Shown here: positions 25,976 through 61,417 of the stretch, piece by piece
Position numbering within the stretch: the first letter of the stretch is position 1
Layout: each line of letters starts with the position of its first letter
Notes under the pieces: generated by a model
Seen by the model: the letters and a program-made list of their open reading frames with translations, nothing else
Database searches by the model: none
Told to the model about the DNA's origin: nothing
Assembly (NCBI RefSeq): GCF_011745625.1
Contig: NW_027191471.1
Location: 248,001-312,000, forward strand
Length of the DNA stretch: 64,000 nucleotides
Direction of reading: 5' to 3'
DNA from: Cladosporium halotolerans
Taxonomy: Eukaryota
Made by a program: the position numbers and the translations under genes

Positions 25976-26175
25976 AGGCGTTCAAAAAGACTTCCAGTGG
26001 TCGAAATACGAATTCTGGGTGCTAATGTCTACGATAGATCTTGTGTATGTGATATTGGCCGGAGAAGGTTCGGTAAGGCGTTCAAAAAGACTCTCTGTGG
26101 TCAAAATACAGATTCGAAGTGCTACCGTCTCCTATAGATCTCGTGTGTGTGATATTGGCCGAAGAGAATCAGGAA
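25976..26175. repeat. Diverged 100-bp direct tandem duplication (2 copies, ungapped)
   Basis: AGGCGTTCAAAAAGACT...ATAGATCT..GTGT.TGTGATATTGGCC recurs exactly 100 bp apart; about 78% identity by hand alignment. Confidence 0.9.
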
Positions 26176-26423
26176 AGAGGTGATAACACAGGCTTGCGGA
26201 CAAGTGGTGTCAGGGAACGACAGTGGCCTAGGTATGCACTATGGGAGGGAAAGGCTTCGATGGAGACTCGTGGGAAAACTGATCTGAAAGCTACGTACTC
26301 AGGGACTCTTCAGCTGTACCTGCACAATCTTCTCACTCTCTGGCTAATTTCACATCTAGAATCATGTTTCAGAGCGAACCAGCTCGGCCGCCACTCAGTC
26401 TCCATGCATTCCTCTCTTGGACC

Positions 26424-28135
26424 TTACACCAGGAGAGCCGCCAACCCCATCGCGCCACCCAGAACTCCCGCTGCAGCTCCAAAAACCTTGTCTGCCATTG
26501 CTTCAACAGTGACAGTAGAGGTGGTGGCTTCCGGTGGATTTTCATCATTTGTCTCGCTCGGTGCCTCGGTCGGTTCAGGCGTGGCTTCCGGAGGCTCGTC
26601 GTTGGTCTCGCTCGGCGCTTCAGTCGGCTCAAGCGTGGTTTCTGACGAGTCTCTGTCGCTACTCTCACTCGAGGGCTCAGTCGGCTCGGGAGGGGTGGTA
26701 CCGATGGTGAAGGTTGCGGTGATTCCGTCTGCTGTCGGCTCTGCCGGTGACAAAGTCGTCACGATGTTTACTGGTACGTTAGTCAGCTCCATCGTGCCTT
26801 GCACAGTGACGGCAATGAAGTTTGACACACTCGGCGAGTGGGTGAAAGTGGATTCGCCGAGCATTTCACTCCGCGTGGATTCGTGGTGCAAGGTGACGGT
26901 AGTGGTGTTGGGCTCTGCTGGTGGGCGGGTGGAGGTGGATCTGGTGGGCCTCTTGCTCGATGCACGCGTGGGCCGGACAGTGACGGTGGTTGTAACGACT
27001 CTCACAGGCGATTTTACAGTGGTAGAGGTGCGCAGCTCCTGACTCGATGGGTCCCGTGTGACAAAAACGATCTCGATGATCGTGCCTCGCGTTGGAATAT
27101 CCACGCTCGTCGGAATGACAACACTTGGAACAACCACGTTGTTTGGGAGCGGTTTTGTCAACTCCGTCACTGTCTGCACGACAGGGCTAAGCAGACTGGT
27201 CCCAGAGACTGCAGCTCTCGGAGGTCCAACATTCGACACCAGCGGCAGACGCGAGCTCAAAGGTGCCGAAACCAGGATCGTTGAGACGACCGTCTCAACC
27301 GCTGGAACGAGAGGGATATCGCGAGATTGAACACTTCCAGCGCTAGCTTTCTACGCCGGTATCGCACGAGAGCTCGGGGGAGGCGTGTGAACGGTAGGTG
27401 GGGCAGCCGTCTCGTTCTTGGGGCTAGGGGAAACGGGGGAAAGAGAAGAAGCACATGCCGGCCCAGAGTCGACCGGACGAGGTTGCGTACCAGATTGTAG
27501 TTTGAAGTTGGCGCAGGTGAGGCGCGTCTTGTCCGCTGCGTGAACGACGACGCTCAGGTTGCCGACAAACGCAGGGGTGCCCTCAGCGGTCGAGATGTAG
27601 GCGTCAACGTAGCTGCCGGTTTCACATGTCAGCAAGAGTCTGATTCCTGAACAAGCAGCGGAAGCAAGATACTTTGCCGCGAAACTAGGTCCGTTCATCT
27701 TCCCATGCTTGCCAGACAGATCGCCGACCTCGCATTTGTCCGGCTGGCTCGGATCGCAGGGCGGAGTGTCGGTGGCGCCGTACGGGTCCAGGTGAGAACC
27801 CGCGGTTGTACAATTGAGGCCGGCGACTGGGCATTTATGAATGTGGTACGCTGCGCAGTCGTCAGCATTCGTGTTTGAAATTGCAAAGAGGTGATCAAAT
27901 ACTGACTGAATGGCCCTCCTTTGTCCGGCAGCCCGGAGATCGAAATCTGGACATTGGCACCGGTGCCGTTGGCATTGCTGTTCACAGCTACGGCGCCGCG
28001 AATTGCGCTATCACTCTTGTCCGGCAGTATGGCGATGTACTGCATGCCGATAGGATTGTCCTCGACGACCGGAGCATCTTCTGCAAATGCGAAGGAGAGA
28101 GCGGATAGGCCCAGCACCAGGGCGAAGGAGCGCAT
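26424..28135 (-). CDS. Extracellular Cu-only superoxide dismutase (SOD5-like) with Ser/Thr/Pro-rich stalk and GPI signal, interrupted by an in-frame TAG at 27353-27351
   Basis: Signal peptide MRSFALVLGLSALSFAFA. Introns 27851-27906 and 27613-27672. Motifs YHIH, GSHLDPY, CEVGDLSGKHG, SVVVH...RLTCANF. The same frame continues after the TAG to a hydrophobic C-terminus (GAAAGVLGGAMGLAALLV). Confidence 0.85.
26521..26631 (-). repeat. Coding tandem repeat in the SOD stalk (2 x 18-19 aa, EPTEAPSETNDE(N)PPEAT)
   Basis: Visible in both the translation and the DNA (about 54-57 bp unit). Confidence 0.85.
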
Positions 28136-31089: not shown

Positions 31090-33120
31090 ATGGAGTCCTC
31101 GCGTGGCCCTCCAAGGGTCAAAAACAAGGCCGCTGCGCCGCAACAGATCAGCGCCGAGCAACTTCTTCGTGAGGCCGTCGACAGACAGGAACCGGAAGTT
31201 GAAAAGCCTACCCAGCGTTTTGCCGATCTAGAGGAGCTCCACGAGTACCAAGGACGAAAACGAAAGGAATTTGAGGACTATGTTCGCCGAAACCGCCTCA
31301 ACACCGGCAACTGGATGCGCTATGCGGTCTGGGAGCTGGAGCAGAAGGAGTACCGTCGCGCGCGGTCTGTGTTTGAGCGTGCCCTGGATGTGGACCCGAC
31401 GAATGTGCAGCTTTGGATGCGATATGTCGATTCTGAGATGAAGGAGCGCAATATCAACCATGCGCGAAACGTCCTCGACCGTGCGGTCACAATACAACCG
31501 CGTCTGGATAAGCTGTGGTACAAATATGTCTACATGGAGGAAATGCTGGGCCAGATCCCGAACGTAAGACAGGTCTTTGAGCGATGGATGAGCTGGGAAC
31601 CGGATGAGGCGGCTTGGTCGGCGTACATCAAGTTGGAGAAGAGGTACGGCGAGTACGACCGTGCGAGGAATATCTTCGAGCGCTTCACGATTGTCCACCC
31701 CGAGGCACGAAATTGGATCAAATGGGCGAGATTTGAGGAGGAGAACGGCACATCGGATTTAGTGAGGGAGGTGTTCGGCATGGCGATCGAAACCTTGGGC
31801 GACGACTTCATGGACGAGAAGCTTTTCATCGCCTACGCCCGGTTTGAGTCGAAACTGAAAGAGTACGAGCGTGCACGTGCGATCTATAAGTATGCCCTTG
31901 ATCGCATGTCACGTAGCAAAAGCGCCATCCTGCACAAGCAGTACACCCAGTTCGAGAAGCAGTTCGGTGATCAGGACGGCGTTGAAGATGTGGTACTGAG
32001 CAAGCGTCGCGTAATGTACGAGGAGCAAGTCAAAGAGAATCCCAAGAATTACGACGCTTGGTTCGACTACGCAAGGCTGGAGGAGACCTCAGCAAACCCC
32101 GATCGCGTGCGCGACGTCTATGAACGCGCCATCGCCCAAATGCCACCATCGCAGGAGAAGAGACACTGGCGCCGCTACATCTATCTTTGGGTTTTTTACG
32201 CGCTCTACGAAGAGCTCACCAATCGTGACATGGAAAGAGCAGGCCAGATCTACCAGGAATGCCTTAATCTCGTGCCTCACAAGAAATTCACCTTCGCGAA
32301 GATCTGGATCCTCAAGGCACAGTTCGAGCTGCGACAATGGCAGCTGGACCGGGCACGTAAGACGATGGGCATGTCCATCGGTATGTGTCCGAAGAACAAG
32401 CTTTTCCGAGCCTACATCGAAATGGAACTTAAGTTGTTCGAGTTCACGCGCTGTCGGACGCTTTACGAGAAGTGGATTGAATGGGACAGCGGCAACTGTA
32501 CTGCATGGATCAAATTTGCGGAGCTGGAGCGCGGACTGGAAGATTACGAGCGCGTCAGGGCAATCTTCGAGCTTGCTGTCGTCCAGCCGCAGCTCGACAT
32601 GCCGGAACTACTATGGAAAGCCTACATTGATTTCGAGGAGGAAGAGGCCGAGTATGAACGCACTCGGGGTCTGTACGAGCGTCTGCTGGAGAAGACCGAC
32701 CACGTCAAAGTTTGGACTTCGTACGCGCACTTCGAGATCAACGTGCCTGATAACGACGTCGAAGTCGGCGAGGACGAGGAAGTGCCTATTTCCGAAGCTG
32801 CGAAAGCACGTGCGAGGGCCGTCTTTCAGCGCGCGCACAAGCTGTACAAATCGAAAGATCTTATCAATGAACGTGTGGCATTGCTCAATGCTTGGAAGAG
32901 CTTCGAGGATGCGCACGGTAGCGAGGAGGACAAGGCGGCAATTGCCAAGCAAATGCCGAGAAAAGTCAAGAAAAGAAGAAGACTGGACGACGACTCCTTC
33001 GAGGAGTACATGGACTATGTCTTCCCGGCCGACGATGCAGGAGCGGCGGGTATGTCCAAGCTTATGGCAGCGGCACAGGCCTTCAAGCGCCAGCAGCAAG
33101 AGACTGCTTCGGCGTCGTAG
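31090..33120 (+). CDS. CLF1: Pre-mRNA splicing factor Clf1/Syf3 (crooked neck, HAT repeats)
   Basis: [23 protein letters not shown], many HAT repeats ([11 protein letters not shown]), [24 protein letters not shown]. Confidence 0.96.
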
Positions 33121-61000: not shown

Positions 61001-61417
61001 CAAGAACGCGCCGCACAGATCGGTGCAGGCCGCGCTCTCGCGCCGGCACACCTTTACATCGGCTGCAGGCACCCGGAGAAAGACGAGCTGTACCGCGAAG
61101 ACATGAGCCGCTTCGAGAAGCTCGGCGCCGTCGAAATCCACCGCGCCTACTCGCAAGCGCCCGAGCACAGCAACGGCTACAAGCACGTCGACGACGTCTT
61201 GCGCGCCGACAGGGAGCTGCTAGGCCAGCTCTGGAAGGATGGCGCCAGGGTGTATGTTTGCGGCAGCAAGGGTGTTGGCGACGCTGTCAAGGACATTGCG
61301 ATTGAGCAGCGCAGGCAGTGGCTTACGGAGCAGGGCGAGGATGACAGCCAGGAGGCGGCCAACAAGTGGTTTGAGAGTATCAGGAACGAGAGGTACAGCA
61401 CTGATGTTTTCGATTAG
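58076..61417 (+). CDS. CYP505: Self-sufficient P450/NADPH-P450 reductase fusion (CYP505, P450foxy-like); exons 58076-58205, 58260-58969, 59027-61417
   Basis: FLIAGHETTSG, ETLR, PFGNGARACIG, flavodoxin LYGSNSGT/TASYEG, FAD RQYSVSSS, NADPH AAGTGLAPFRGF, C-terminal RYSTDVFD. Introns 58206-58259 and 58970-59026. Confidence 0.96.

Follow-up and report, generated by a model that had tools for sequence, protein, structure and literature searches.

Fungal copper-only superoxide dismutases (SODs), with Candida albicans SOD5 (PDB entry 4n3t) and Fusarium oxysporum Sod5 as described examples, combine a common domain, the Cu ligands, a Glu/Asp pair, the absence of the Zn-binding histidines and a short loop VII with a signal peptide and a glycosylphosphatidylinositol (GPI)-type tail. 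These features, with a putative signal peptide and a putative GPI-type tail, are shared by a gene on the minus strand of a 64,000-nucleotide stretch of DNA from Cladosporium halotolerans (NCBI RefSeq assembly GCF_011745625.1, contig NW_027191471.1, positions 248,001 to 312,000), which as a whole is called the window here. In the accounts covered here, fungal Cu-only SOD genes are each either GPI-anchored or secreted, Aspergillus having lost the anchor, whereas the window gene has transcripts for both forms and in addition a long stalk gated by an in-frame TAG stop codon.

Short tails behind a UGA-CUA context are found in the peroxisomal PGK and GAPDH isoforms of fungi, whereas in the present gene about 290-310 codons and a GPI signal stand behind UAG-A. 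The likeness to these isoforms, which are formed by readthrough or splicing, lies in a C-terminal targeting signal hidden behind a stop and in dual localisation (PMC9549241). In animals one extracellular SOD gene can supply free and membrane-bound forms, as is the case for C. elegans sod-4, where alternative splicing is used, and for Drosophila Sod3 (PMC5987716); these are, however, Cu/Zn enzymes, and no stop-gated third form is described for them in the accessible text of the same source. The stop-correction and stop-loss editing of Sordariomycetes (PUK1, AMD1, FgBUD14 and DBF2; Tad2-Tad3-Ame1) resembles the window gene in a conserved in-frame UAG with U at position -1, a hairpin loop, which is a candidate here, and a coding frame behind the stop, in the false introns which annotators place over the stop (PMC4817773), and, for FgBUD14, in the combination of editing with alternative splicing of the intron holding the site (PMC11156358). 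In contrast to these cases the host is a Dothideomycete, the gene is well transcribed in two RNA-derived sequence runs (X20 and X21), and no edited sequence was seen here; the unedited product would be a complete enzyme, and editing would alter its location or reach instead of activating a function or shortening a half-life. Correction of UAG to UIG in hairpin loops outside the sexual stage is described for the OLD-ZAO antiviral module of Neurospora crassa (PMC12754623). OTT_1508 domains are present in the genome examined here as well, but OLD edits mainly a neighbouring zinc-finger gene, and none of the six OTT_1508 matches lies on the SOD contig.

SOD5 enzymes, splice-derived free and bound animal SODs, stop-correcting editing and readthrough targeting are already known. 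No published account was found of this gene, of mRNA editing in Cladosporium, of readthrough adding a GPI signal, of a SOD combining splicing with a stop-gated form or of a Dothideomycete editing site, in a search which lay mostly outside subscription journals and for which supplements could list such sites; from the supplement of PMC11087585, 30 of 60 Dothideomycetes rows plus one were covered. The accessible parts of PMC10041177 and PMC10776026 contain nothing on Dothideomycete editing or SOD genes. Which fungal classes beyond Sordariomycetes and Pezizomycetes edit their mRNA is considered an open question (PMC11156358).

The SOD gene and its transcript forms

The reading proposed here is that the gene yields three forms. 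Splicing from a donor at 27490 to an acceptor at 26771 would give form A, 291 amino acids (aa) with a short stalk and a GPI signal; transcripts which skip this donor would keep the TAG and give form B, 222 aa long and secreted; and in a part of form B the UAG would be decoded, leading to form C with a predicted length of 511 aa when intron B is spliced and 531 aa when it is kept, GPI-anchored on a Ser/Thr stalk of about 320-340 residues. Such a set might allow the enzyme to be released, kept close to the membrane or carried outward into the wall. The start codon is at 28135, and introns 1 and 2 (27906-27851 and 27672-27613) each have a GT donor, a GCTGAC branch site and a CAG acceptor. The layout is given below, where P numbers are protein models and L numbers related loci.

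27907..28135, minus strand: exon 1 with the start codon, a signal-peptide-like N-terminus (about residues 1-18, judged by eye) and the first part of the SOD domain; from the sequence, identical to P0001
27851..27906, minus strand: intron 1, 56 nt, with branch site GCTGAC and CAG; joint in X20 and X21
27673..27850, minus strand: exon 2 with Cu ligands H79, H81 and H96 and the E117/D120 pair, from the alignment
27613..27672, minus strand: intron 2, 60 nt; joint in X20 and X21
27491..27612, minus strand: constant part of exon 3 with the fourth Cu ligand H160, C169 and the end of the SOD domain, from the alignment
27485..27490, minus strand: donor A, G/GTACGC, phase 1, which opens the 720-nt intron 27490-26771; joint 26770/27491 in X20 and X21, conserved in relatives
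26831..27490, minus strand: alternative 660-nt exon extension of a 46-codon linker, the TAG and 173 stalk codons, intron in form A and retained in form B; contigs X20 record 3 and X21 record 9
27351..27353, minus strand: conserved in-frame TAG, the end of the 222-aa anchorless form; in the sequence, the RNA contigs and relatives
27343..27359, minus strand: candidate anticodon-arm-like hairpin with a 7-nt loop N-U-A-G-N-N-N and a stem of 3-5 bp; 26 of 28 cells paired in 7 sequences, weakest in the window, function putative
26427..27350, minus strand: 308-codon Thr/Ser/Pro-rich stalk frame past the stop; from the sequence, with purifying selection on its orthologue in each of four close relatives, and matched by no Pfam family
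26771..26830, minus strand: intron B, 60 nt, which joins the weak donor B (A/GTGTGT, phase 1) to the acceptor common to both forms; joint 26770/26831 in X20 and X21, intron retained in X21 contig 26742-26860
26771..26789, minus strand: shared branch site CTGACTAAC with CAG acceptor, phase 1; ACTAAC and a phase-1 CAG likewise present at this position in L004, L008 and L011
26424..26770, minus strand: last exon with an acidic Glu/Pro/Thr short stalk, a GPI-type signal (small residues, spacer, hydrophobic tail) and TAA; from the sequence, tail hydropathy 2.1

Judged by its sequence, the gene is a fungal Cu-only SOD of the SOD5 type. An earlier note on this DNA had called it a Cu-only SOD and pointed out that SOD5-type enzymes lack two Zn-binding histidines, carry EVGDLSGKHG and are usually GPI-anchored; the alignment with C. 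albicans SOD5 (4n3t), the best PDB match of the SOD domain (E 5.4e-28), supports this type. The four Cu-binding histidines H79, H81, H96 and H160 align with H75, H77, H93 and H153 of SOD5. The Zn site is gone, no histidine being present between H96 and D120, and E117 and D120 align with the EVGD of SOD5 (the E110/D113 signature). Loop VII is short and an electrostatic loop is lacking, as the segment from H160 to C169 aligns to SOD5 free of gaps; C90 and C169 are conserved, and matches to Cu/Zn SODs stop at residues 160-163. Both termini are hydrophobic, and by sequence and hydropathy the C-terminal tail is similar to other SOD5 tails. Two near-identical EPTEAPSETNDE units in the last exon (window 26630-26530, minus strand) are missing from L008 and L011 and represent a recent repeat in the short stalk.

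Twenty-four sequence runs were listed, none of them recorded as RNA, and four of these (X20, X21, X1 and X4) were compared with the locus. X20 and X21, both near-identical to the window, were judged to be RNA-derived from their spliced joints; their depth is one figure per contig and gives rough proportions only, and the contigs lose rare variants and do not link distant exons. In each of the two runs two joints lead to the one acceptor at 26771. The 720-nt joint from donor 27490 has a depth of 24.9 in X20 and 51.7 in X21, with a short side of 29-30 letters and exact GT-AG ends, and the 60-nt joint from donor 26830 has a depth of 38.8 and 46.6, respectively; an X21 contig (26742-26860, depth 27.2) runs across the unspliced 60-nt intron. 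Being phase 1 at both ends, the 720-nt intron removes the TAG in frame, and the resulting protein is identical to the public model P0001 (C. halotolerans WHR41_05876). With the 60-nt splice, or unspliced, the frame terminates at the TAG after 222 aa and has no GPI-type end. The X20 contig with the 60-nt joint and its X21 counterpart span 26831-27520 with no other letter and no gap, which places the TAG in processed RNA and excludes both the base error considered in the earlier note and majority editing in these samples. X4, from a distant relative, runs past donor A unspliced and aligns only down to 27485, short of the stop, and X1 gave a single partial match of 34 nt.

There is very little doubt that A and B both exist as RNA forms. 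Form A would be a GPI-anchored enzyme on a stalk of about 100 residues. The protein of form B, having a signal peptide and no anchor, would be secreted, since a F. oxysporum Sod5 reporter with the signal peptide and without the GPI signal reaches the medium (PMC7960929). The suggestion that one gene makes a secreted and a wall-anchored SOD holds insofar as anchored and anchorless transcripts occur in both near-identical runs; it fails in tying the anchor to the stop, because the ordinary anchored form is independent of the stop, which is removed with the 720-nt intron. The splice signals responsible, donor G/GTACGC at 27490, branch site CTGACTAAC with its CAG at 26771 and the donor at 26830, were absent from that suggestion. 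The stop would control only the third, long-stalk form.

The TAG in related fungi and the frame behind it

Past the TAG the frame continues for 308 codons to a TAA at 26426-26424 and ends in the hydrophobic tail, with 17% T, 12% S, 12% P, 12% V and 8% E. A Ser/Thr/Pro/Glu-rich stalk of this length with a GPI-type tail and no ATG near its start had been described before, and the sequence bears this out, the first Met being codon 163. When the 193 codons from the TAG to the last acceptor are shuffled with dinucleotides preserved, 10 of 5000 shuffles are free of stops, the mean being 5.24. TAG is a normal terminator in the window, being the stop of a long frame at 61415 and of the HAT-repeat (Clf1-like) frame of 698 codons at 33118, and ends 2 of the 24 long frames, by which a changed genetic code with reassigned TAG was ruled out.

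A metagenome scan with an alignment of the family proteins gave ten loci, three of which (L006, L010 and L013) end before the site and were left out of the stop count; an earlier scan with window-specific peptides had confirmed 0 of 315 candidates. All seven loci reaching the site, which are six distinct ones since L008 and L009 are near-identical, carry a single in-frame TAG, never TAA or TGA, 48-55 codons past the [TS]CANF motif. Behind it the frame runs on for 290 codons in L008 and 293 in L011 and closes with a GPI-type tail; in the other five it is still open where the contig stops (130-320 codons). In 13 of 16 cases the two other frames are interrupted by stops. A tree of the SOD domain places L004-L006, L008 and L011 beside Cladosporium sp. 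NU13 (99/95) and L007 in the Rachicladosporium group (94/77); L012 joins Peltaster with moderate support (88/77). The TAG loci come from two clades within Cladosporium, from a Rachicladosporium-like branch and from a Peltaster-like one, so that the stop spans more than one genus. Two NCBI proteins of 215 aa, P0022 (Cryoendolithus antarcticus) and P0024 (Oleoguttula sp.), end 11 residues past a PPTV motif, where the window frame ends 12 past it. Their cluster mates P0004, P0023 and P0065 (693, 699 and 630 aa) skip the region in differing ways and go on to a long stalk and a hydrophobic tail, and the model P0002 leaves the frame near the stop.

Form A is probably conserved as well, because synonymous divergence dips at donor A (0.12) and at the branch site and acceptor (0.06-0.19) as compared to 0.35 overall. 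Six of the seven loci have donor A, in phase 1, at the same place, and L012 has it 12 nt downstream; the ACTAAC branch site and phase-1 CAG recur in L004, L008 and L011, where donor B is not conserved. Long-stalk models with no visible stop come from Friedmanniomyces and Elasticomyces, although these are protein models whose DNA may hide a stop. They point to an ancestral long form and to a later origin of the TAG, which would have been kept for adding a secreted form. A profile search of representative proteins, in which two new proteins were inspected, gave no further usable orthologue among the best 150 of 1473.

Selection was measured from the TAG to the branch site, a region spliced out of form A and left untranslated behind the stop of form B, among L004, L005, L008 and L011. 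The ratio of nonsynonymous to synonymous divergence (dN/dS) was 0.16-0.35 in all six pairs at dS values of 0.41-0.80 (Fisher p 1e-7 to 8e-16, the pairs not being independent), third-position changes were two to four times as frequent as those at position 1 or 2, and all internal gaps were multiples of three. As controls the SOD exon gave 0.09-0.19, the pre-stop linker 0.25-0.53 and the last exon 0.31. The third-position excess starts within the first 30 codons past the TAG, before the first Met, and in L011 it precedes the first in-frame acceptor at +265, with 41, 40 and 33 third-position differences as compared to 6-13 at position 1 or 2. Selection at the protein level implies that something translates the stalk frame, and for this readthrough or editing would be needed. 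A new start of translation at an ATG further downstream was rejected, as the first Met of the window is codon 163, the coding pattern in relatives predates the first Met, and such a product would have no signal peptide. With reinitiation failing, TAG a normal stop elsewhere in the window and the splice route discussed below weak, decoding of the UAG remains; that it is decoded by some route to a long-stalk GPI form of 511 or 531 aa is considered likely.

Two observations on relatives stand beside these results. The Elasticomyces elasticus models P0078 and P0074 are near-identical except for a 62-residue block right after CANFTIP, the position of donor A, and donor A, or a hidden stop, may extend to them. 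The Peltaster-like SOD (L012:3165-3290; P0068 and P0081) has Gln for the fourth Cu histidine (VVQF) and, judged from this exchange, is probably inactive; in L012 the TAG, stem and long stalk are nevertheless all retained, and a non-catalytic role of the stalk forms may be behind this.

Possible routes past the stop codon

In the preferred reading the decoding step would be a conditional A-to-I editing of the UAG in a hairpin loop, UIG being read as Trp, by a deaminase of the Tad2/Tad3 or the OLD type, at a stage or under a stress which X20 and X21 do not sample or at a level which contigs drop. Taken as a whole, the statement that the gene yields three forms with the UAG decoded by A-to-I editing appears evenly poised between right and wrong. 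Both Tad2-Tad3-Ame1 and OLD preferentially edit UAG codons within hairpin loops, which are then read as Trp (PMC11156358, PMC4817773, PMC12754623, PMC11087585, PMC13123824). The genome contains six OTT_1508 deaminase matches, five of them without stops, eight matches to the dCMP-deaminase family and three to DUF726, a finding which is permissive only. The OTT_1508 (OLD-type) matches are at G000:C663, C691, C527, C105, C95 and C128 (L067-L072), on small contigs of 6-50 kb. In the nine stretches beside OLD-type matches no gene built of a long frame, a TAG and a further long frame was found at thresholds of 100 and 150 codons, and five frames scanned near the SOD gene belong to the TRAPP, ankyrin, Prp31 and HAT-repeat families or to none.

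In seven sequences (the window and six distinct loci) a short stem with a 7-nt loop can be drawn so that the stop occupies loop positions 2-4, in the register of U33-A34 of a tRNA anticodon arm. Of its 28 cells 26 are paired (92.9%), as compared to 7-64% with slid partners, and four of four pairs form in five of the seven sequences, as compared to 1.9% of 838 background TAGs. In L007 both sides of one pair are changed and a second pair is swapped to A-U. RNAalifold recovers the hairpin in the four close loci, and the window loop GUAGAAA matches the loop CUAGAAA of this genome's tRNA-Ser(AGA) in six of seven letters. Folding z-scores of the whole stretch are not significant in any of the seven sequences (-1.44 to +0.87). 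The hairpin is a lead and no proof, with modest support from these comparisons.

UAG decoding would seem to be needed at a second place in the genome, in an NDR/PUK1-like kinase (L085:1834-1836, equal to G000:C175:218333-218335, plus strand) whose kinase domain holds one in-frame TAG, with 493 open codons before it and 436 after it. The position of this TAG is Phe in NDR1 and Cbk1, the alignment runs without insertion, and splice signals are absent. It lies in a predicted hairpin loop with a stem probability of 0.88, whose four outer pairs share the register of the SOD hairpin, and is distinct from the PUK1 site, which lies in subdomain IX and reads Trp-Trp here. The predicted looped kinase TAG together with a SOD UAG in a candidate 7-nt loop favours A-to-I editing over leaky termination. 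Of seven kinase matches inspected for an internal TAG, six resemble introns, a branch site being close by.

A number of points weigh against editing of the SOD stop. Tyrosine is a usual readthrough residue, and the kinase site would accept it as well. The hairpin was first spotted by eye, its shuffle control is not significant (98 of 500), and when synonymous codons are redrawn for the same amino acids, 30-44% of the draws at each locus pair as well as the observed sequence. Only in L007 and L011 is the arm the dominant structure of the local ensemble (0.95 and above); its share is 0.24 in L004 and about zero in the window, L005, L008 and L012, and the target A is predicted to be paired in the window and L008. 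There is no clear synonymous dip around the stop. A purine at the +3 base, the preference of Fusarium editing (PMC11156358), is found in two of the seven sequences only. The A-to-G change at the TAG which the earlier note had named as a check is not seen in the X20 and X21 contigs, which drop minor variants and exclude majority editing in those samples only, and in 10 plus 6 long-stalk proteins no Trp occurs at the site 45-60 residues past the CANF motif. Stalk selection was measured among the relatives and not on the window's own branch, and form B, with its stop 520 nt before the splice junction, is a possible target of decay. In the accounts covered here, genome-wide fungal mRNA editing is reported for Sordariomycetes and Pezizomycetes only (PMC7306014, PMC13431901), and Tad2-Tad3 alone normally requires a whole tRNA.

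Form C could also arise from an unchanged RNA by programmed translational readthrough, a near-cognate tRNA reading the UAG for a few per cent of the ribosomes which reach it. The conservation on which form C is based fits this equally, no edited letter is seen in the X20 and X21 contigs, neither a special enzyme nor a sexual stage is required, and the first codon past the stop is an invariant ACT in the four close loci. Leaky contexts such as UGA-CUA and UAG-CAR-YYA are, however, unmatched, the base after the stop being A in six of seven sequences. A ribosome would presumably open a hairpin centred on the stop, which would then be no readthrough signal; downstream of the stop neither a conserved or covarying structure nor a synonymous dip is found, and among 50 tRNA loci scanned, a part of the genome's set, none has a CUA anticodon. 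Although the mechanism is established for dual localisation in fungi (PMC9549241), it is regarded as unlikely here. Still less probable is a rare or stage-specific splice form which drops the TAG and keeps the stalk, leading from donor A to an acceptor just past the TAG (for example by a 189-nt route to 27302) or using the 66-nt intron 27367-27302 (GTGCGA..CCAG) of the earlier note. A phase-1 CAG does follow the TAG by 19 nt in L004, L005 and L008, by 34 nt in L007 and by 49 nt in the window, P0004, P0023 and P0065 skip the region by predicted introns, and just two RNA data sets, whose contigs lose rare forms, bear on the question. Against this, none of the four aligned runs, only X20 and X21 of which cover the place, has a joint for the 66-nt or the 189-nt intron, no branch-like site precedes the near acceptors, and L011 and L012 have no phase-1 YAG until +265 and +298, L011 showing a coding pattern over that stretch nonetheless. 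The public models are mutually inconsistent, P0002 even leaving the frame to bypass the stop, and splicing leaves unexplained both the constant TAG, a codon ending 2 of 24 long window frames, and the agreement of the frames on either side. The proposed 66-nt stretch exists and is in frame and has no CTRAY branch site, but with no junction across 27302-27367 and neither donor nor acceptor conserved, it was rejected as an intron. The TAG itself as an acceptor was rejected too, being out of frame with donor A, and the upstream phase-0 GT sites are not conserved donors.

A stop well upstream of a junction is the usual decay-prone layout. Form B might be mainly a decay-bound transcript which tunes form A, with the stalk kept by a small leak or as a slowly decaying relic of an ancestral long form. 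The position of the stop, 520 nt upstream of the junction and 867 nt before the normal stop, would fit this, as would the stop-free long-stalk models of Friedmanniomyces and Elasticomyces, which make an ancestral long form probable. The contigs with the TAG are, however, as deep as the form A joint (38.8 vs 24.9 and 46.6-54.7 vs 51.7, all rough figures), the pre-stop linker is itself under selection, and a relic would not hold a dN/dS of about 0.2 with triplet-only indels at dS 0.4-0.8, so that this explanation is judged highly improbable. A recent nonsense mutation, which the earlier note offered as the alternative, or a sequencing error in this strain has nothing in its favour beyond the appearance in a single genome and the failure of X4 and X1 to cover the site. 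Since both RNA-derived contig sets contain the TAG, all seven related loci reaching the site have it at the corresponding place and two NCBI proteins of other genera end there, the probability left to it is negligible.

Returning to editing as the preferred route, it is tentatively proposed, with somewhat more doubt than confidence, that Cladosporium and related Dothideomycetes edit mRNA UAG codons in anticodon-arm-like loops as a localisation switch on top of alternative splicing, by which short anchored, secreted and edited long-tethered SOD5 would be made. If true, this would, together with the NDR kinase TAG, mean a stop-correcting editing system in a fungal class for which no report was found. 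Window position 27352 is a single nucleotide where Dothideomycete editing can be tested, and it lies in a gene that is well transcribed in moulds which are common and grow in culture. Were readthrough the route, an extension of about 300 residues with a terminal GPI signal would still greatly exceed the short peroxisomal tails known from fungi. By either route one extracellular SOD gene would be able to supply secreted and wall-bound pools, and the locus would explain the conflicting public annotations of this gene family (215, 291, 555, 630, 693 and 698 aa).

Minor features of the locus and the genome

In the trailer between the SOD gene and a convergent ankyrin gene an imperfect direct repeat, whose two copies of about 85 nt are spaced by 100 nt, was spotted by eye (window 26160-26076 and 26060-25976, minus strand); an X20 contig reaches through the SOD trailer to 26000. 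Antisense to the stalk a 321-codon open frame is found on the plus strand (window 26077-27042), which is most likely a shadow of the coding frame. Elsewhere in the genome ten near-identical tRNA-like elements of variable length (L054-L058, L060 and L066), called Asp(ATC) by ARAGORN and having a poorly paired anticodon arm, are probably a tRNA-derived repeat family and not true tRNAs.

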